Part shown: positions 2,145 through 30,455 of the stretch, piece by piece
Numbering within the stretch: the stretch's first letter is position 1
How the letters are laid out: each line of letters starts with the position of its first letter
Assembly: GCF_000829315.1 (NCBI RefSeq)
Contig: NZ_AP013028.1
Span: forward strand, 450,001-482,000
Direction of reading: 5' to 3'
Source: Wolbachia endosymbiont of Cimex lectularius
GTDB taxonomy: Bacteria; Pseudomonadota; Alphaproteobacteria; Rickettsiales; Anaplasmataceae
DNA length: 32,000 nt
Notes under the pieces: model-generated
Databases searched by the model: none
Seen by the model: the letters and a program-made list of their open reading frames with translations, nothing else
Told to the model about the DNA's origin: nothing
Made by a program: the position numbers and the translations under genes

Positions 2145-3008
2145 AGAACCTGTTTAAAATCTTGGAAATGTGAGGTAAAGTAAGCATAGATTAATAATGA
2201 GGTGTCTATGCAGAAAAGTTATCCAAGTAATATAAGTCAAGAGCAGTTTGAAAAAATCAGGCCAATTTTGGAGAGTAGCAAGCAGAAAACAAAACCAAGA
2301 AAACTTGATTTGTATGACGTATTTTGTGGGGTGTTGTACGTCTTAAAAAGTGGTTGTCAGTGGAGGATGTTACCAAAGGGTTTTCCAAGATGGGAAAGCG
2401 TATATTACTATTTTCGAGTGTGGAGTAAAAAGAATGGAGAAGAGCCAAGCTTGTTGGAATTAGTCTTAAAAAAAATTAGTTGGAGAGGTCCGTATCAGCA
2501 ATGGTCGGAAAGAGAAAACTAGCTTTTGTATAATTGATTCTCAAAGCGTTAAAAACGCAGATACTGCTGAAAAAAAAAAGGCTATGATGCAGGTAAAAAG
2601 ATTTCAGGGATAAAGCGCCATATTGCAGTTGATACACAAGGTTTGCCACATGCAATTTATGTAACAACGGCAGAAGCAACTGACCGTAGCAGTGCTGTGA
2701 AAATGGTCGAAAATGCTAAAGCAAACCTCTCTGAAGTTAAAAACATACTGGTTGATGCTGGCTACACAGGAGAAAATTTTGCAACACAAATAAAAGCTAT
2801 CATTGGTGCGACTGTTGAAGTAATAAAGCGAAGTGAGTTACACACTTTCGTCGTATTGCCAAAAAGATGGGTTGTTGAACGCTCTTTTGCCTGGTTAGAA
2901 AAGTGCAGGCGATTGTGGAAAAATTGCGAGCGGAAGCTCAACACTAGCTTACAGATGATAGTCCTCTCCTTCATTTCTCTCCTGTTACGAAGATTTTAAA
3001 CAGGTTCT
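2145..3008 (+). mobile_element. IS5-family insertion sequence (IS1031/ISWpi-like), 864 bp
   Basis: Perfect 19-bp terminal inverted repeats: AGAACCTGTTTAAAATCTT at 2145-2163 and its reverse complement at 2990-3008. The interior encodes a DDE transposase. No flanking direct repeat is visible. Confidence 0.85.
2202..2999 (+). pseudogene. IS5-family DDE transposase split over three frame segments
   Basis: Segment 1 is 2202-2474 (N-terminal HTH part, ...CQWRMLP...). Segment 2 is 2476-2577 in the +1 frame (LVGEVRISNGRKEKTSFCIIDSQSVKNADTAEKK). Segment 3 is 2580-2999 (GYDAGKKISGIKRHIAVDTQGLPHAI...VDAGYTG...VVERSFAWLEKCRRL). The frame changes fall in an A8 run (2468-2475) and an A10 run (2570-2579). 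Confidence 0.75.
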
Positions 3009-3076
3009 AAATAAGAAAATTGGTATCTCGGTGAGAGGCAAGGAAGAAAACTTTAACTTGTCTTGACCGTAATGCT

Positions 3077-4015
3077 TTATACTTTATGAGCAAGAAGATT
3101 CTGTTCTTGTTGTGCGTTAGTTTCTTCTAGTTTACTTGATACTGCATATGTAATACCACCAGCAACAAGCCCAACTAACGAGGCAGCAGCTACAATTATG
3201 CCAGCTATAGCCAATATTGGTAATGCAACACCGGTAGCAAAACATCCAACACCAACTGCCAATCCAGTTACAACACCGAAAGCAATACCAATTTTTATTG
3301 CTTTACTAACTGCCATCCTAGTTTCAACTTGAAGAATTTTTTTTAGCATATCCTGATTTCCAGCCTCTTTTAAAAGACCTTTAATTTTCTCACGCTCATC
3401 TTCTTCTATAGCAACAAAAACTTCTTTTAACATGCCAAGACTTTCAGCTGCATCTAAAACGATTTTAATGCTTTCCTGTCCGTTCTGAAAAGCCATAGCA
3501 TAGGTAAGCGGTGTCTCAGTGTATTCTTCACGATTTTGGAGCTTTATGGTTGCCGGAGTATTAAAAACTTTTTTTAATATATTTTGCTCTCCTTTAACTG
3601 CATGTAAAATAGTTTTAATGCTTTCCTGATGATCATTAAAACTTATAGTAGAAAGACTTATAGCAAGGGCAAACGGTGTGGAAGTATGTTCTTCATCATC
3701 TGGAAACTTTGAATGTACATTCGTAGTAGTAAGAATGTCTTCTAATATACTTAGATTTTTAGCTGCACGTAGAATAGCTTCAACAGCTTTATAGCGGTTA
3801 TAAGAAATAGCAAAGGCAAGCAGTGTCTCAGTACGTTCTTGATTAACATCTTCAAACTTTTCAAATGTATTTACAGCAGTAAGAAACGCTATCAAATCAT
3901 TGTCTGAAACTTCTTTAAAAGAATTAAGGAATTGATCCTGATCTACTTTTATTTCTGCCTCTAACTTTTCATACAACTTCTGTTGTGTGTCTGTTAAACT
4001 TGTGTTATTAGGCAT
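3077..4015 (-). CDS. Degenerate ankyrin-like repeat protein with a C-terminal Gly/Ala-rich transmembrane region
   Basis: The 312 aa ORF has three to four roughly 45-aa repeats of the type TPLTYAMAFQNGQESIKIVLDAA / TPFALAISLS..HQESIKTILHAV / TLLAFAISYNRYKAVEAILRAA. A hydrophobic block of about 60 aa follows (IGIAFGVVTGLAVGVGCFATGVALPILAIAGIIVAAASLVGLVAGGITYAV). Confidence 0.6.
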   Translation of the reverse strand: MPNNTSLTDTQQKLYEKLEAEIKVDQDQFLNSFKEVSDNDLIAFLTAVNTFEKFEDVNQERTETLLAFAISYNRYKAVEAILRAAKNLSILEDILTTTNVHSKFPDDEEHTSTPFALAISLSTISFNDHQESIKTILHAVKGEQNILKKVFNTPATIKLQNREEYTETPLTYAMAFQNGQESIKIVLDAAESLGMLKEVFVAIEEDEREKIKGLLKEAGNQDMLKKILQVETRMAVSKAIKIGIAFGVVTGLAVGVGCFATGVALPILAIAGIIVAAASLVGLVAGGITYAVSSKLEETNAQQEQNLLAHKV

Positions 4016-4318
4016 ATTAAATCCTCCTGTTAAAAATAATAATATAATTTAATTATTAACTATTTTGATATAAAAGTCAAGAAAAAAATTAAGAAAAAGT
4101 TAAGAAATGGACAAGATATCAATAATCACACACACTCAAATAAGCAAAAGGTGCCCGTGCTCAAGCAAACATATCAAATTGCGCAATTAACAGAGCCATA
4201 AATTCATTGACCAGCAGTTGATGGCGAGTAGTTTCTAAGTCTGAAGTATGAGTTAATGGATTATTATGATTTTTACTAAAATATTAATATAGTTAAGCTT
4301 TAATAGTGAGGTATTAAA

Positions 4319-5734
4319 ATGGGAAAATGTAATAACACATGGTTCAATAAGCATGATTGTACAAACGATGGCACCTGCGGTCAATCTATACAAAATTATA
4401 AGGTTGGTAATTCTAATATTTCTTTCTATGACAGCTATGGAAAAACGATTGCACAGATACCTAAGTTGCCTAACGGAAACTCTATTACATACTATAATAA
4501 TTTATACAAAACTGCAGAATCAAAAAATTTTGCTGGTAGGTCAGCAGAATATGTAGGAATTCAGGATGTATTGCCTAATCAATTTAATTTCAAATATGGA
4601 AAGTTAAATTGCGTGATACATTATGATAATGTATCACAAGAGGAGCAAGAGCAAATAAAGCTTGATATTCAAAACGCTTATGAGGCATACAAAGCGAAGT
4701 TTTGTATTGCCGGTACCCAAGGTACTGTGCACACCTATATTTTTAATAATGAAAATGACTATAAGAAATACGGCACTAAGGTTCCTGGGTTTTCAAAGTA
4801 TCAAGATATGGTTAATAAGTCTGCTGGAATGACAGATGGAAGAAGCGTATCGCTCTATAAAAATGCTTATATGGATAACGTTTTAGCACATGAAATGGGT
4901 CACGTGTTCCAATTTAGGTTTTCCATGGCAGAAGTAGAAGCATTAGACCGTGTAAATTCTCAGTTAATGGCAAATGCCATTGGGCTAGAAGTAGAAGAAA
5001 AAAATTATAAAGCTATTTGTGAACAAAAAGACATAAATGAATACAAAAAGTTTAATGACAAAATTTTTGAGTTTGAGTACAAAGGCACCCTGTATCAAGT
5101 ATGGGGTAAGGTACGTCAAAATCTTTCAGGAGAGGAGAAAGTTCAATTTATTAAAGACATTAAGAGCTCTCATGAATCGCTTACTAGTGAGTGTTATAGA
5201 TTAGGTGGTGAAAGTGCAACTTTAAAAGTTCACATTTATGTTGGTGAAAATAAAGACATAGATAAAGTGTTTTTTTATAACCCCAACAAGAACTTATCTA
5301 AATGGTTGGATAAGACACTTATAAGCAGAAGTAACCCTGAAGAAGAGGTAAATACAGAGAAAAGTCAAGAGGAACAAGAGTCAAATGAGGTGAATTCAAG
5401 ATCAGGGAAAGAAAAATCCTGGAGTCAGGAAGAGTTGAATAAAGTAGAACATACAGGCTCAAAGGAAGAACAAAGTAAGATAGAAGAGAGCCAGCAAGGC
5501 ACTCAGCAACCCAGTGACTCGTCACCTAATGTTATTTTTCAAGCGCTTGACTACATTATTGGTTCCATTTCATCATTCTTTTCATGGTTATTTGGTTCTA
5601 AAGAGAAAGAACAACCTGCTCAACAATCTGACGATAGCTTTTCTTTATTTGAGTTTGATGCGAGCGGGCTAGATCACGATATTGGAGATCACTTGTCAGA
5701 CAATCATTATCACTCATCTGATGAGCTAATATAA
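4319..5734 (+). CDS. Large HEXXH zinc-metalloprotease-like protein with an acidic/Ser-rich C-terminal tail
   Basis: The 471 aa ORF is preceded by GTGAGG. The HEMGH motif is at aa 191-195 (nt 4889-4903). Its context, VHTYIFNNENDYKKYG...GMTDGRSVSLY...LAHEMGHVFQFRF, resembles the M9 collagenase catalytic core layout. There is no obvious signal peptide. The C-terminal ~130 aa are low-complexity E/S/Q-rich plus a hydrophobic segment, VIFQALDYIIGSISSFFSWLFG. Confidence 0.6.
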   Translation: MGKCNNTWFNKHDCTNDGTCGQSIQNYKVGNSNISFYDSYGKTIAQIPKLPNGNSITYYNNLYKTAESKNFAGRSAEYVGIQDVLPNQFNFKYGKLNCVIHYDNVSQEEQEQIKLDIQNAYEAYKAKFCIAGTQGTVHTYIFNNENDYKKYGTKVPGFSKYQDMVNKSAGMTDGRSVSLYKNAYMDNVLAHEMGHVFQFRFSMAEVEALDRVNSQLMANAIGLEVEEKNYKAICEQKDINEYKKFNDKIFEFEYKGTLYQVWGKVRQNLSGEEKVQFIKDIKSSHESLTSECYRLGGESATLKVHIYVGENKDIDKVFFYNPNKNLSKWLDKTLISRSNPEEEVNTEKSQEEQESNEVNSRSGKEKSWSQEELNKVEHTGSKEEQSKIEESQQGTQQPSDSSPNVIFQALDYIIGSISSFFSWLFGSKEKEQPAQQSDDSFSLFEFDASGLDHDIGDHLSDNHYHSSDELI

Positions 5735-6021: not shown

Positions 6022-6291
6022 TTGTCATTCCAGCGCGTGACGCACATCTGTACGAACATTGCAATTAGCAGGTAATTTGCGTAACAGATGGTGTCATCCC
6101 AGTGCTCCGACACTGGGATCCAACCTTTCCATAATCATTAAAACGCCGTATTTTAACATAAAACAGCTACTTTTATACTCACCAACTTAATAAAATTCCT
6201 GGATGCCAGTGTCAGCTACTTGCATAACACCCTAGTGGTAGGCTCAAATCACAATGTTCGTACAGATGTGCGTCACGCGCTGGAATGACAA
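6022..6291. repeat. Perfect 40-bp inverted repeat flanking 190 bp, inside copy A
   Basis: 6022-6061 (TTGTCATTCCAGCGCGTGACGCACATCTGTACGAACATTG) is the exact reverse complement of 6252-6291. Confidence 0.9.
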
Positions 6292-6747
6292 CATTTGTTG
6301 TAAAAACAAATGTTCGTTCATGAATTGCAACTAGCTATAAATATTAAGAAATTTATCAAATGAGAAAAAAAGCAAAAGAAACCCTGGTCGGTGGCTAATT
6401 ATTTATATGTACCTCAAATATCGGCGTTTTTATTCTCAGCGCTACGATTCAGCTACTTTTAAATGCAAATAACCAAAACTGTAAACGTTAAGAAATTTAC
6501 TAAACAGGAAAAAGGGCAAAAAAACTCTAGGGCAGCTAGTATTCAAATTCTCCCTTGTCTATTTGACGTTCTACACTATCTTAAACGACTTATAAGCGCG
6601 TTTCAGCTTGTATAGATAAAAACCCGAAGTTTTAAAAAGACGTGAGGTGCACATAGTGCAAAAATTTAAACATGAGACGCCAAATACCCTAAGTTTTTTG
6701 TCATTAACCTGCACAGATTGCGAAGATAAATAAATAGCTTCAGTATC

Positions 6748-14224: not shown

Positions 14225-14690
14225 GGTGTAACCTTTATGCTTAAGAAATTTACCAAATGGAGAAAAAAGCAAAAGAAACCCCGTGGTAGCTAGCTATTTA
14301 CTTTTGTGTCGAAATGTTGGCGTTTCTTTATCCTAAACGCTTAATAAGTGCGACTTAGCTGCTTTTTAATGCAACTAACCTTAGCCATAAACATTTAAGA
14401 AATTCACTAAGCAGAAAAAAAGCAAAAGAAACCCCGAGTAGCTAGTTATTCACTATCTATCTTATGATATTGGCGTTTTTGATGTCTTAAACGACTTATA
14501 AGCGCGTTTGAGCTTGTATAGGTAAAAAAACAGAAGTTTTAAAAAGACATGCAGTGCACATAGTGCGAAAAATTAAACATGAGACGCGAAATATGTTAAG
14601 TTTTTTTGTCATTTAATCTGCACAGACTGAAGATAAATAATAGCTTCAACTCTATAATAACAGGGTTAGCGAAGGTTGTCAAGTAGTTTT
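14225..14690 (-). repeat. Composite intergenic repeat, copy B (lacks the palindrome/intron-site half)
   Basis: Contains the promoter block, the unique block and two ~154-bp tandem sub-repeats (14243-14396, 14397-~14545), all homologous to copy A. Confidence 0.8.
14654..14682 (-). promoter_or_regulatory. Near-consensus sigma70 promoter of repeat copy B
   Basis: The minus strand reads TTGACA (14682..14677), 17 nt, then TATTAT (14659..14654). It points toward the coxB operon. Confidence 0.5.
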
Positions 14691-22580: not shown

Positions 22581-22931
22581 TTATTTCTTTTCTTCCGCTC
22601 CACACTTGTCCATAATGGAAGTATTTCCAGTACCACCTACACCACCGATTACTTTTGTCACAATAGCTTTTGCACCAAAAAACACAACGCAAAATACACC
22701 GAGTGCAAAAAGTGCCGGCCAGGGCATTTTACCGAATATTGCAAGCAAAGCCGCACCTATTATTACTATAGTCATAAGAGGTCCACCTATTCCCCAAACG
22801 TATTTAATAATATTGCATATTACTTTGGTAGTTGCATCAAGATCACTATCAGCAGCACTGCTCATATGAGAAAAGGAAATAAATAATATTATAAGAAAAA
22901 CACTAAAAACTTTCCTAATTGTAGGGTTCAT
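22581..22931 (-). CDS. virB2: TrbC/VirB2-family T4SS pilin paralog 2
   Basis: 116 aa with core IGGPLMTIVIIGAALLAIFGKMPWPALFALGVFCVVFFGAKAI, nearly identical to paralog 1. Confidence 0.75.
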   Translation of the reverse strand: MNPTIRKVFSVFLIILFISFSHMSSAADSDLDATTKVICNIIKYVWGIGGPLMTIVIIGAALLAIFGKMPWPALFALGVFCVVFFGAKAIVTKVIGGVGGTGNTSIMDKCGAEEKK

Positions 22932-24203: not shown

Positions 24204-24290
24204 TAGTTCAGTATTTAACCTTTAAAGATAGGTACTTCATATATCGATTTCAAGTGAGGCCTCTGTTTTCTTCGTAGACTAAAAACATTG

Positions 24291-24365
24291 TGCACCCTGA
24301 GCGACTCGAACGCCCGACCTTTTGATCCGTAGTCAAATGCTCTAATCCAACTGAGCTAAGGGTGC
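24291..24365 (-). tRNA. tRNA-Arg (anticodon ACG)
   Basis: The minus strand reads GCACCCTTAGCTCAGTTGGATTAGAGCATTTGACTACGGATCAAAAGGTCGGGCGTTCGAGTCGCTCAGGGTGCA. It folds by hand into a cloverleaf with a 7-bp acceptor stem, D arm GCTC/GAGC, anticodon stem TTTGA/TCAAA with loop CTACGGA, and T arm GGGCG/CGCTC with TTCGAGT. CCA is not encoded. Confidence 0.9.
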
Positions 24366-24531: not shown

Positions 24532-24861
24532 ATGAAAAATTTTCTTCTACTTATAGCTTTAATCCTCTCTTTTGCATTTGATGCAAATGCTGCTAAGCAG
24601 AGTAAAACTCAAGGTGATGAAACATCAGAAGTGATATGCAGCATAGTAAAATATACCCAAAGCATAGGTGGGCCGATGATCACAGTAGTAATAATAGGTG
24701 CAGCTCTGCTTGCAATATTCGGAAGAATGCCTTGGCCTGCTCTTTTTGCACTCGGAGCATTTACTGCTGTGTTTTTTGGTGCTCCTATAGTTGTTTCAAA
24801 AATAATGCCAAACGCTGGTGTGGCTTGTAAAGATGGTACAGTACAGAAAGTGACTCCGTAA
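24532..24861 (+). CDS. virB2: TrbC/VirB2-family T4SS pilin paralog 3
   Basis: 109 aa with a signal peptide and core IGGPMITVVIIGAALLAIFGRMPWPALFALGAFTAVFFGAPIV. Confidence 0.75.
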   Translation: MKNFLLLIALILSFAFDANAAKQSKTQGDETSEVICSIVKYTQSIGGPMITVVIIGAALLAIFGRMPWPALFALGAFTAVFFGAPIVVSKIMPNAGVACKDGTVQKVTP

Positions 24862-24974: not shown

Positions 24975-25018
24975 AAAAACACCAAGTAATGGTGCTTCTT
25001 AAAAAAGCACCATTACTT
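24975..25018 (-). terminator. Strong hairpin, intrinsic-terminator-like on the minus strand
   Basis: A perfect 14-bp stem, AAGTAATGGTGCTT (24984-24997) pairing with AAGCACCATTACTT (25005-25018), has a 7-nt loop. On the minus strand it is followed by GGTGTTTTT. No T-run follows it on the plus strand. Confidence 0.5.
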
Positions 25019-25146: not shown

Positions 25147-25781
25147 GTCGAGTAGGCCGGTGGAACTTCCCCACCAGCCCCTCACAGAACTGTGCATGAA
25201 CCTCTCGATTCACACAGCTCTTGTCATTTTTAGCCTTTACATCAAAGACCTACCTTAATTATTTGCTCCTCCCATTTCGGTTGACAAATAACTAAAACCC
25301 AAATGACTTAGTCCCTTCGCTCCATCTCCATTACAGAGACTTCTTCACTACTACGAACTAATCCGCCCCTGTTTTCCGCATCGATACTCTCATCCTCGAA
25401 GTTTAGCTTCTTGGATTTCTCCCTTATTATCGAAACGACAGGTTCCCGCAGTTCTACACAATAGCCCAAAATAGATTCGCGCCACCTCTATGCCGGACGC
25501 CACTACCCAATAAACAAGTTTCCGGTAGATTTATCCCAGGTTAGGATGAAACCCCTGGTTTTGACGTCATCTAAGGCCTTTCGACACTTCTTCAGTGGTT
25601 CATTTTCATTCCCCTCTCTATTTCACACATGACGCATAATTGCGCCTTTTCCATAACGCTCACTACCTTGGCTCTTTACCAAAGCAGCTTATGGTTGTTT
25701 GAAGCCTGCTCTTGTAAACCGGCTCCGAGGGGCCCACCCTCATCTATTGTGCAGCTTCAGCTTACCGCTTCTACGGCACAC
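25147..25781 (-). mobile_element. ORF-less group II intron (ribozyme only, ~635 nt)
   Basis: The minus strand starts with GTGTG (25781..25777). Domain V at 25220..25187, GAGCUGUGUGAAUCGAGAGGUUCAUGCACAGUUC, folds as a 9-bp stem with the AGC triad, a 5-bp stem, a GAGA tetraloop and a 2-nt AU bulge. Domain VI is a hairpin with a bulged A (25153) 7 nt from a ...CGAC 3' end. No coherent ORF is present and the segment is visibly more GC-rich than its flanks. The boundaries match the intron-less paralogous site at 6002/6003. Confidence 0.8.
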
Positions 25782-26267
25782 TCATTCCAGTGCCTCCTCT
25801 TTTGTCATTCCAGTGCTCGACACTAGAATCCAGGAAAGTTTGCTTGTTCACAAGCAAACTGATTCGGTGATCATGGAAAGTAGCTAATCTTGTGCTAAAA
25901 ACGTTCTTGGTGAGGTTGCATGGGAAGCTGGATTCCAGCGTCACGCGCTGGAATGACACCACTTGCTGTAAAAATAAATGTTCGTTCATGAATTGCTTTA
26001 ATATTTAAGAAATTTACTAAATAGAGAAAAAGGCAAAGAAATCCCGAGTGGCGAGTTTTGACTCTATAATACTTTAAATTGGCGCTATAATAATTTGCTG
26101 ACGCTTAGTTCAAGCGCGATTTGGCTGAATGTAGAAAAAATGAAAAAGACATGCAGCCGCTATAATTTGATACAATCCGCCAAAAAATACCCTGAGTTTT
26201 TTACTGAATTTTGTCATTGAGCCTGCAGATCAAAAACAAGTTTTGATTTAGAAACACCCTTGCTGTT

Positions 26268-26407: not shown

Positions 26408-27151
26408 ATGTATAAAACTTTAATCACGTGTTTTGTTCTTCTGATTTGCTCTTTTGCGCAATCTTATGCGAATGATGATGTTCATCTTGAAAAAAGTGAA
26501 ACTGAGCTATATGAGGAGGTAGTTAAGCTTTTTGACCAGAAAAAATATAAACAAGCCATCAGAGCATTTCAAAAAATTGAAGATTTGTACCCCTTCTCTT
26601 ATTGGGCGATGAAAGCAAAATTATTATCTGGTATTTCTCACTACAATATGGGCAACTACAGCAGTGCTGCAAGTGATATGGACGATTACACACAGATTTA
26701 TTCAAATGGTGAAGACTTACCGTATGTGTACTACCTAAGGGTATTATCTCATTATATGCAAATCAATAAAGTACAACTCGGGCAACAAACGGCATATAAA
26801 GCTTTAGAGCTAGCTGCTGAGTACATCAATCTCTTCCCAGGCAGTGAACATACAGAAGAGATAAAGGAAAAAGTAAAGCTAGTTACTGAACATATATTAG
26901 CGAAAGAATATTCTATCGGTAGGTTCTACATAAGGCGTGGTGAATATCTAGCAGCAATTAAGCGTTTTCAAAATGTAATAAGCAGCAAGGATTCTAGCTA
27001 CTTTCCTAGATCTGTTAACTATCTAATAGCAGCTCATTCAGCCCTTGGCCTTGATCTGGAAGCTCAGCAGTATGAAAGTATGCTAGCAGGAACCCTCAAA
27101 AGGAAAGACGAAGTTCCATGTGAGAACAGCAAACTTGAAAATTCGCTTTAG
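26408..27151 (+). CDS. bamD: Outer membrane protein assembly factor BamD (YfiO/ComL-like TPR lipoprotein)
   Basis: 247 aa with a signal peptide and a BamD-like TPR pattern (YEEVVKLFDQKKYKQAIRAFQKIEDLYPFSYWAMKAKL...IGRFYIRRGEYLAAIKRFQNV). Confidence 0.8.
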   Translation: MYKTLITCFVLLICSFAQSYANDDVHLEKSETELYEEVVKLFDQKKYKQAIRAFQKIEDLYPFSYWAMKAKLLSGISHYNMGNYSSAASDMDDYTQIYSNGEDLPYVYYLRVLSHYMQINKVQLGQQTAYKALELAAEYINLFPGSEHTEEIKEKVKLVTEHILAKEYSIGRFYIRRGEYLAAIKRFQNVISSKDSSYFPRSVNYLIAAHSALGLDLEAQQYESMLAGTLKRKDEVPCENSKLENSL

Positions 27152-29814: not shown

Positions 29815-30455
29815 TTTACTTGACAACCTTCGCCGTCACCCTTATAATGATACTGGAGTTATTTGTTTAACTTCCCAATCTGTGCAGGTTAAAATGACAA
29901 GAAAACTTGTATTTGGCGTACTATGTGCACTGCATGTCTTTTTAAAAACTTCGGGTTTTTACCCATACAAGCTGAAACGCGCTTATAAGTCGTTTAAGAC
30001 ATCACCCAACGCCGGATTTTAAAATAGAGAGTGGAATAACTAGCTACCTCGGGGTTTTATTGTCCTTTTTTTCTGCCTGGTAAATTTCTTAAATATTATA
30101 GCTTAGACTAGTTGCGTTTAAGGCATAAAAACGCCAATACTAAAAATAAATACCGACCAGGGTTTCTTTTGCTTTTTTCTCTGTTTAGTAAATTTTTTAA
30201 ATATTTATAGCTAATTGCAATTTATGAACGAATATTTGTTTTTACAACAAATGGTGTCATTCCAGCGCGTGACGCTGGAATCCAGGAACTTTATTAGGCT
30301 AGTGAGCATAAAAGTTATGTTAAAATGCACCATTTTTATGGAAAACTGGATCCCAGTGTCGGAGCACTTGGATGCACCCTCTTGGCAGCACAATGTTTGT
30401 ACGCTCTTCCTGAGTATTCCCATCTGCGTTTCTCCTCAAAATTTTTTACCATAAA
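29815..30455 (+). repeat. Composite intergenic repeat, copy D (sense strand is plus)
   Basis: Contains the promoter block, the unique block, two shortened sub-repeats (ending ~30092 and ~30200), hairpins at 30259-30281 and 30350-30374, and a far-end block CATCTGCGTTTCTCCT (30421-30436). Confidence 0.8.
29820..29848 (+). promoter_or_regulatory. Perfect consensus sigma70 promoter at the edge of repeat copy D
   Basis: TTGACA (29820-29825), exactly 17 nt (ACCTTCGCCGTCACCCT), then TATAAT (29843-29848). It begins 26 nt after the stop of the SPFH gene. Confidence 0.6.

Follow-up and report, generated by a model that had tools for sequence, protein, structure and literature searches.

A 635-nt group II intron without a reading frame in the Wolbachia endosymbiont of Cimex lectularius, a probable internal-deletion derivative of a class D intron

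The stretch analysed here, 32,000 nucleotides (nt) of the Wolbachia endosymbiont of Cimex lectularius (contig NZ_AP013028.1, positions 450,001 to 482,000; called the window below, with coordinates given as window positions), carries on its minus strand, from 25781 to 25147, a group II intron of 635 nt that has no open reading frame (ORF). The reality of the element is confirmed. Its identity, its class, the anatomy of its deletion and its structural intactness can be read directly from the comparisons reported here, and so can the sharing of its deletion junction by many unrelated loci. Very probably it is a non-autonomous derivative of a class D (IIB3, RmInt1-like) intron that lost its ORF by one deletion and was mobilised in trans; the past movement through a trans-supplied protein is the part that we infer. 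An earlier reading of the same DNA, made without database searches (the sequence-only reading), had proposed both an ORF-less group II intron and its dependence on a protein supplied in trans. The former is borne out by significant matches in a covariance-model search with the Rfam models, and the latter is counted as part of the supported core of our interpretation.

The whole window was scanned with Rfam at the curated gathering thresholds. Two of the four matches define the intron: RF01999 (group-II-D1D4-2) at 25741-25628 on the minus strand, with 108.9 bits against a cut-off of 36 (E 7.9e-22), and RF00029 (Intron_gpII, domains V-VI) at 25222-25147 on the same strand, with 59.8 bits against a cut-off of 40 (E 1.5e-9). 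The termini, GUGUG (25781-25777) and ...CUCGAC (ending at 25147), fit the 5' GUGYG and 3' AY criteria. In full-length copies from the Wolbachia of Laodelphax striatellus (wStri) the flanks diverge exactly at GTGTG and ...CTCGAC, matching the assigned intron ends, and among the ORF-less copies homology ceases at the intron 3' end. Domain V consists of a 9-bp lower stem with the AGC triad, a 2-nt AU bulge, a 5-bp upper stem and a GAGA loop, and all 15 of its 15 helix pairs are formed. The branch-point candidate in domain VI, A25153, is the seventh nucleotide from the 3' end and is unpaired both in the Rfam alignment and in our consensus structure. No reverse transcriptase (RT)/maturase ORF was found in the element, the reading frames on the intron strand being at most 53 amino acids (aa) long. 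Its G+C content is 0.44-0.48, against 0.29-0.37 in the flanks. Most of these traits had been described in the sequence-only reading: the GUGUG at the minus-strand 5' end, every hallmark of domain V, the domain VI hairpin with a bulged A seven nt from a ...GAC end, a domain IV stub with GGAGG in place of an RT ORF, the want of a coherent ORF, and a composition richer in G+C than the surroundings. They hold, with the stub measuring about 85 nt here against the earlier figure of about 60 nt.

The complete RNA folds at -215.6 kcal/mol (z = -6.9 relative to dinucleotide shuffles). For the comparative structure, an alignment (A1) was made of the window intron and nine relatives from Wolbachia, Sinorhizobium, Aquicella, Bradyrhizobium, Methylomonas, Mesorhizobium and two proteobacterial metagenome-assembled genomes (MAGs); it combines full-length introns from which the ORF was cut out with natural ORF-less copies. 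RNAalifold predicted from A1 a structure of 174 pairs in the six-domain arrangement, 106 of them with compensatory changes, compared to 58 in shuffles. Covariation gives this structure strong support: in a separate count on the same alignment, 96.4% of cells are paired, versus 81% after shuffling columns and 39-47% when partners were slid by one to three columns. The window intron forms 171 of the 174 consensus pairs, and bona fide full-length relatives form 158-173. Judged by this model, the window copy is structurally intact and retains all six ribozyme domains (Table 1).

A scan with a degenerate domain V pattern, covering one genome per bacterial species, gave 107 loci, against which the intron was compared by BLASTN. 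Full-length relatives are present in wStri in at least five copies (L001, L043, L093, L099, L105). The 1864-nt wStri intron is 87% identical to the window intron over intron positions 25-527 (domains I-III) and 97% identical over positions 562-635 (domains V-VI). Between these homologous blocks the wStri copies hold about 1.2 kb more, coding for a protein of 408 aa that contains RVT_1 and GIIM domains and lacks an endonuclease domain. Pairwise alignment shows that one clean deletion inside the window copy took away the ORF, beginning near codon 9 and reaching about the stop codon: the GGAGG and degraded codons 1-8 are kept at 25272-25241, and homology restarts about the stop codon, some 25 nt before domain V. 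The sequence-only reading had raised the possibility of an internal deletion of a full-length Wolbachia intron, and the alignment answers it with a clean loss of the ~1.2-kb ORF within domain IV. By these comparisons, the window intron is an internal-deletion derivative of a common Wolbachia RT-encoding intron of about 1.86 kb. Many Wolbachia genomes from supergroups A and B, as well as 'Candidatus Wolbachia massiliensis', have annotations for related intron-encoded proteins (IEPs; 78-100% identity), and the parent family is therefore widespread among Wolbachia.

A further deletion, affecting the 5' stem of domain I, was considered and ruled out, as a full-length relative (L131; GCA_026768255.1, JAPTGF010000037.1, 477-2330) has a similarly short stem. 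This class D-type intron itself apparently interrupts another reverse-transcriptase gene within the part that codes for YADD (…GCAGATGACA/GTGCGCC). RVT_N/RVT_1 lie upstream of the intron and GIIM lies downstream, an arrangement that looks like a twintron. Two further sequences touch the same family. One is a protein (P0047) from a 5.35-Mb contig of a beetle, Euwallacea similis; it carries the annotation 'protein YkfC-like', shares 99% identity with the wStri intron RT, and probably reflects either Wolbachia-to-host transfer or contamination. The WOVitA4 phage record HQ906664.1 ends inside a copy of the window intron family (L128, 341-586) that is 94% identical over intron positions 25-210 and has a long 5' stem; the boundary of that record therefore probably lies within a repeat.

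The class of the intron was derived from the protein of its closest full-length relative. The wStri protein shares 48% identity over its full length with the 419-aa RmInt1-type protein of S. meliloti and 49% with an IEP from E. coli that is typed as class D, compared to 25% with an IEP typed as class E (PMC8919778 Table S3). Its C-terminal tail is of the ENPxxFxHW type (...ENPNTFYHWRL, with ...ENPGLFVHWK and ...SPQLFAHWRL in class D proteins), and the ribozyme aligns at the nucleotide level (BLASTN) both with RmInt1 and with the class D intron from E. coli. Pairwise identity and the shared tail thus point to bacterial class D (IIB3), because 48-49% identity to class D proteins stands against 25% to the class E protein. 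The same figures rule out class E for this family; some Wolbachia (wInc) introns have been typed as class E (PMC8919778).

Contiguous ORF-less copies at 92-99% identity occur in the Wolbachia of the cicada Tettigetta isshikii (wTis: L023, L050, L059, L069, L087, L107) and, within the same range of identity, in a Rickettsiales MAG (L040), most of them at contig ends. The deletion junction in domain IV is identical to the nucleotide in the window, in all of these copies, and in the ortholog of a sister strain (L117). We compared the ORF-less copies by their 1.5-kb 3' (downstream) flanks, which are mutually unrelated save for the ortholog pair of window and L117 and for a 43-nt stretch common to L059 and L087; in L069, L059 and L087 homology stops at the intron 3' nucleotide plus CA. 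The same junction at seven or more loci with unrelated flanks therefore indicates one deletion and then insertion at at least seven loci, and insertions of copies without an RT gene of their own require a reverse transcriptase from elsewhere. Presumably the ORF-less lineage moved, after the loss of its ORF, by means of a protein supplied in trans. Genomic copies of RmInt1-ΔORF (nt 611-1759 deleted) are immobile alone; given the IEP in trans, they move as efficiently as the wild type (PMC1802570). Exact-pattern scans of metagenome_contigs and viral_contigs with the 5' end and the domain IV junction of the lineage gave no match.

The copies could also have multiplied at the level of DNA, through recombination or gene conversion between dispersed palindromic repeats, with no part played by reverse splicing or reverse transcription. 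The target motif belongs to a dispersed repeat (see below), several 3' flanks are similar over 15-45 nt, and L050 and L107, which are distinct copies, both lack the same 8 nt (GAUUAGUU) at the base of domain III, a deletion that would probably cripple the ribozyme. This last point tells against mobilisation in trans as the sole route: it suggests either DNA-level duplication or tolerance of the defect, and some of the increase in copy number may therefore be DNA-level. As a general account it is nonetheless unlikely, since homology ends at the intron 3' end plus CA in three of the copies and, apart from that, the 1.5-kb flanks show no relation to one another. Ends as precise as these mark intron insertion, and the full-length wStri copies behave alike, with 5' exons complementary to their exon-binding site 1 (EBS1).

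Loss of the ORF is not confined to this lineage. A Wolbachia MAG (L068, WOLB0025) has an ORF-less copy that is 84% identical; its junction differs, being closer to the wStri sequence, and its ORF was therefore lost independently. ORF-less relatives are also found on a Methylomonas plasmid (L111, CP157007.1, 3001-3608), in a Mesorhizobium MAG (L042) and on plasmid pSBC2-3 of Caballeronia sp. SBC2 (L119, 2501-3131; 631 nt, 68% identical). The Methylomonas and Mesorhizobium elements (in A1), as well as L068, are independent derivatives from unrelated bacteria, and each has kept both the region of the GGAGG and start codon and the nucleotides that immediately precede domain V. By these alignments, ORF loss appears to be recurrent in the class of the window intron. 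On the Caballeronia plasmid the ORF-less copy lies directly upstream of two full-length ltrA genes (3540-4784 and from 5336), a layout that would be a natural arrangement for protein supply in trans.

Mobilisation in trans would have run as follows. The ORF-less element would be transcribed, and a related RT/maturase made elsewhere in the cell would bind the RNA and promote lariat splicing. The ribonucleoprotein would then reverse-splice into DNA sites fitting EBS1, EBS2 and EBS3, here the ...CTGGAATGA^C... of a dispersed palindromic repeat, and cDNA synthesis would probably be primed at replication forks, as for RmInt1, because the protein family has no endonuclease. The retained base of domain IV, with its ribosome-binding site and start region, would be the site of protein binding. 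In studied introns, this base with the ribosome-binding site/start region is the primary binding site of the intron protein; in Ll.LtrB, the role falls to the DIVa hairpin with its ribosome-binding site and start codon. In RmInt1, larger deletions into DIVb lower homing from about 40% to below 2% (PMC1802570). A different possibility is an intron like C.te.I1 that splices independently of protein, so that a maturase is unnecessary in vivo. It would suit a compact and intact ribozyme, and RmInt1-ΔORF does self-splice in vitro (PMC1802570). We regard it as very unlikely, for the genomic ΔORF copies of S. meliloti needed the IEP for mobility (PMC1802570), at least seven loci cannot be reached without a reverse transcriptase, and the kept domain IV hairpin, of the type that binds an IEP, suggests dependence on protein.

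The recognition elements by which such a complex would find its target can be placed in domain I: the A1 alignment puts EBS1 in the terminal loop and EBS2 in an internal loop, which is the IIB-type layout. In wStri the corresponding terminal loop, CUUGAAU, has full complementarity to the (A)UUCAAG that ends most wStri 5' exons. In the window intron, EBS1 can pair with the 5' exon at 6 of 7 positions, one of them as G.U, and this pairing, like the +1 C found in every ORF-less copy, speaks for the proposed target. The candidate EBS2 of the window intron could form 5 bp and sits in the same internal loop of A1 as the EBS2 of RmInt1 (AUGAA), with the register offset by 2 nt; its assignment is inferred from this position. 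For RmInt1, EBS1 UUUCGUC pairs with GAUGAGA, the intron-binding site 2 (IBS2) has the register -13..-9, and the wild-type EBS3-IBS3 pair is G-C (PMC4075523). By analogy, the +1 C at the window site is consistent with a predicted EBS3 of G.

Within the window, the target motif CTGGAATGAC (IBS1 plus the +1 C) occurs 12 times with at most one mismatch, about nine times the 1.3 expected (for example at 4824, 6024, 6280, 25804, 25948 and 30256), and one of the 12 sites is occupied by the intron. Among the Wolbachia loci searched, no unoccupied exact target CAGGAAGGGGGCTACTT was found. As CTGGAATGA^C lies within a dispersed palindromic repeat, the intron adjoins an intergenic repeat family and targets a motif of it. 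The repeat beside the intron has 31-nt arms at 25803-25833 and 25928-25958, and partial copies lie at 30160-30285, 30038-30102, 6270-6384, 6488-6524 and 14241-14447. It is this repeat that Rfam scores as the small RNA (sRNA) family WsnRNA46, by a marginal match on the strand opposite to the intron; the family match may simply mark the repeat family.

An intron so placed might have been domesticated, that is, it or its transcript might be kept for a host function, for example a cis-regulatory or small-RNA-related one associated with the WsnRNA46-like repeat. The copy is intact despite its age and adjoins a match to an Rfam sRNA family, and similar speculation exists for the RmInt1-like fragment FRE652 (PMC5894124). 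The natural variants point the other way, since the orthologs in two related strains (L117 and L118) are decaying or truncated and reveal no conserved constraint, and the WsnRNA46 match is both marginal and on the opposite strand. A host function is therefore extremely unlikely.

Both orthologs bear on the history of the window copy. The sister strain L117 (GCA_051710465.1; bamD 96% identical) has the intron at the same locus, 94.3% identical to the window copy, which is about the level of the flanking intergenic DNA (95%). In a third strain, L118 (GCA_051710485.1; bamD 87% identical), upstream synteny is broken, an ankyrin gene and yhdP standing in place of trbC/dnaJ. The 36 differences between window and L117 were polarised with paralogs from wStri, L068 and wTis, which assigned about 25 of them to the L117 branch and 5 to that of the window; L118 was dropped as an outgroup because it is heavily A+T-decayed and has parallel G-to-A changes with L117. 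The window/L117 ratio of changes, 5:25 in the intron, differs from the 15:12 of flanking coding DNA (Fisher p = 0.003).

Weighing against our interpretation are, in the first place, the age and the state of this insertion. It is intergenic; its orthologs at the same locus in L117 and L118 indicate that it is old and vertically inherited, and these orthologs decay: in L117, 14 helix pairs are broken and the AGC of domain V has become AUC, and in L118 only the A+T-decayed 5' 380 nt remain (~2988-3375). Hence no host-level constraint is evident at the locus. Compared with upstream intergenic DNA (9:17), the ratio of 5:25 is not significant (p = 0.14), so that a slower change of the window copy is suggestive only. 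Five other assemblies carry the region at 100% identity, contiguous across the intron and breaking only in the neighbouring repeat; the intron is therefore probably single-copy in this strain. A tblastn search with a related intron protein found no IEP gene in the 32-kb window, and look-ups of several Wolbachia IEPs led to assemblies of other strains. The sequence-only reading had placed the intron in a promoter-bearing repeat: the repeat stands, as a dispersed, WsnRNA46-like palindrome in the flanks, and the promoter is not supported, there being five promoter-like matches around the intron, not above the 2.9 +/- 1.6 expected by chance. Finally, one of the 7 EBS1-IBS1 positions, at -5, is a C.A mismatch, and a C-to-G change at intron position 170, specific to the window copy, has cost one consensus pair of domain I.

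Most of this would fit an inert fossil, an ancient dead insertion that is neither transcribed nor spliced nor mobilised and that looks intact only because few mutations occurred in its lineage; the copy, apparently single, is intergenic and has no coding exon junction. We put this at almost an even chance. On the other side, the window copy keeps its catalytic hallmarks and 171 of its 174 pairs, while an ortholog only 5% away has lost 14 pairs and the triad, and 5 derived changes in 635 nt compare with 25 in L117. Moreover, the fossil explanation bears on present activity only and is compatible with both the identity and the past mobility of the element.

Table 1. Features of the ORF-less intron, its presumed target and its neighbours (window positions).
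Feature	Position	Strand	Basis or remark
Complete ORF-less intron, 635 nt	25147..25781	-	Rfam matches; flank divergence among copies
5' splice site	between 25782 and 25781	-	
3' splice site	between 25147 and 25146	-	
Domain I	25454..25781	-	Intron positions 1-328; contains RF01999 match; helices with compensatory changes
Domain II	25368..25442	-	Intron positions 340-414
Domain III	25308..25361	-	Intron positions 421-474
Domain IV stub	25222..25307	-	Intron positions 475-560; ~85 nt
Conserved hairpin in domain IV stub	25298-25252	-	Compensatory changes among relatives (helices 23-25)
Shine-Dalgarno GGAGG in domain IV stub	25272-25268	-	
Remnant of IEP codons 1-8	25263-25241	-	ATG now ATA
Domain V, 34 nt, GAGCUGUGUGAAUCGAGAGGUUCAUGCACAGUUC	25220-25187	-	AGC triad at 25219-25217
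Domain VI	25150..25183	-	Bulged branch-point candidate A25153
Predicted exon junction after splicing		-	...GGCACUGGAAUGA joined to CAGGAAGGGGGCUAC
EBS1, UCAUCCU	25543..25549	-	Same A1 columns as RmInt1 EBS1 and wStri CUUGAAU
IBS1, GGAAUGA	25782..25788	-	Last 7 nt of 5' exon
Candidate EBS2, GCCUU	25573..25577	-	Can pair with 5'-exon GAGGC, 25796-25792 (-15..-11)
IBS3, +1 C of 3' exon	25146	-	C in all ORF-less copies
Target site, CTGGAATGA^C			IBS1 + C25146
Longer form of target, GAGGCACTGGAATGA^CAGG			
Palindromic repeat scored as WsnRNA46 (RF02625)	25792..25976	+	67.8 bits against cut-off 65.3, 45-nt insertion; not part of intron
trbC-like gene	24532-24861	+	One flank of intron; intron antisense to it
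bamD	26408-27151	+	Other flank of intron; intron antisense to it
Terminator-like hairpin	24984..25018	-	16 bp + T-run; ~130 nt downstream of 3' splice site; consensus match only

The intron lies between the trbC-like gene and bamD and interrupts no gene. A search for an interrupted gene gave no credible ORF, the longest open segment of the ligated exons being 88 aa and unsupported. The trbC-like gene has a TrbC-family paralog on the minus strand at 22581-22931 (83% identical over 119 nt), and the two paralogs flank dnaJ and a tRNA-Arg(ACG) gene (24290-24365, minus strand). The product of the dnaJ ORF had no exact counterpart among known proteins, probably because the gene starts at another codon. 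A phage-tail gene fragment is located near the far end of a matching contig (L108).

The element belongs to an already known kind, as both ORF-less bacterial introns (PMC4424553) and the trans-mobilisation of a class D ΔORF intron (PMC1802570) have been described, and the novelty implied by the sequence-only reading was overstated. Since ORF-less bacterial group II introns are known, the interest of the element is modest: it leaves the understanding of group II intron biology unchanged and is a tidy example, not a new kind of element. Our literature search, which excluded Leclercq et al. 2011, found no description of this Wolbachia ORF-less lineage. Abundant group II introns in Wolbachia were reportedly the subject of the work by Leclercq and colleagues, as papers citing it have it. 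The lineage is of use in other respects. It offers a natural counterpart to the engineered RmInt1-ΔORF, in which one deletion kept the domain IV hairpin and at least seven Wolbachia loci were then reached. Surveys based on RT ORFs overlook such copies, and the annotation of mobile elements in Wolbachia is therefore affected; ORF-less copies also break short-read assemblies, as in wTis. The three orthologs (intact in the window, point-mutated in L117, truncated in L118) make up a small natural series of group II intron decay. More tentatively, and at somewhat below an even chance, these introns might be miniature non-autonomous retroelements specialised on the CTGGAATGA^C repeat motif and amplified in trans by class D proteins, with ORF loss leaving the same domain IV base having been repeated independently in the window/wTis lineage, L068, Methylomonas, Caballeronia and Mesorhizobium. 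If so, such repetition would point to miniaturisation as a regular and successful path in the evolution of class D introns and not a dead end.

Several known systems resemble the window element. ORF-less bacterial introns in genomes with related full-length introns are described in PMC4424553, citing Simon et al. 2008. As summarised there (Simon et al. 2008; Dai & Zimmerly 2003), bacterial and archaeal introns of this ribozyme-only form stand beside related IEP-encoding introns, and some, including the Thermosynechococcus family with its IEP in trans, occur in several copies that imply trans-mobilisation, as here. The Wolbachia element differs in its host, an obligate intracellular symbiont, and in its class, D. 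FRE652 (Toro et al. 2014, as presented in PMC5894124) is likewise derived from a class D intron, is without most of its IEP-coding sequence and, like the window copy, is vertically inherited. It is truncated, with domains I-III and part of domain IV and neither domain V nor VI, whereas the window copy keeps all catalytic domains; the closer likeness to FRE652 is L118. Miniature inverted-repeat transposable elements (MITEs), which are small non-autonomous derivatives of DNA transposons, follow the same logic (a protein gene deleted internally, the recognised parts kept, amplification in trans) by an entirely different mechanism, the window element being an RNA-mediated ribozyme retroelement, so that the comparison is an analogy only.

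The full-length Wolbachia introns (the wStri copies and L125 of 'Ca. W. massiliensis') are 87-90% identical to the window copy in domains I-III and up to 97% in domains V-VI, and have the same GUGUG and CUCGAC ends; in the window copy their ribosome-binding site and first 8 codons can still be made out. The window copy lacks their ORF of 408-417 aa, has a short 5'-proximal stem, as in the full-length L131, and differs in EBS1 and EBS2 and hence in its target. RmInt1 of S. meliloti (class D/IIB3) has the same ribozyme architecture, can be aligned at the nucleotide level, and carries EBS1 and EBS2 in the same loops; a +1 C is common to both, as in the G-C EBS3-IBS3 pair of RmInt1. Its IEP, 48% identical to that of the closest full-length relative of the window intron, likewise has no endonuclease domain and ends in a class D tail. 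The differences are a nucleotide identity of only ~65% in domains I-III, the 2-nt shift in the candidate EBS2-IBS2 register, and the target, which is ISRm2011-2 for RmInt1 and a palindromic-repeat motif for the window intron. The closest parallel to the deletion is an engineered one: RmInt1-ΔORF (pKGEMA4, nt 611-1759) was made in the laboratory and the window element is known from its sequence alone, and in the former almost the same segment was removed that Wolbachia has lost naturally.

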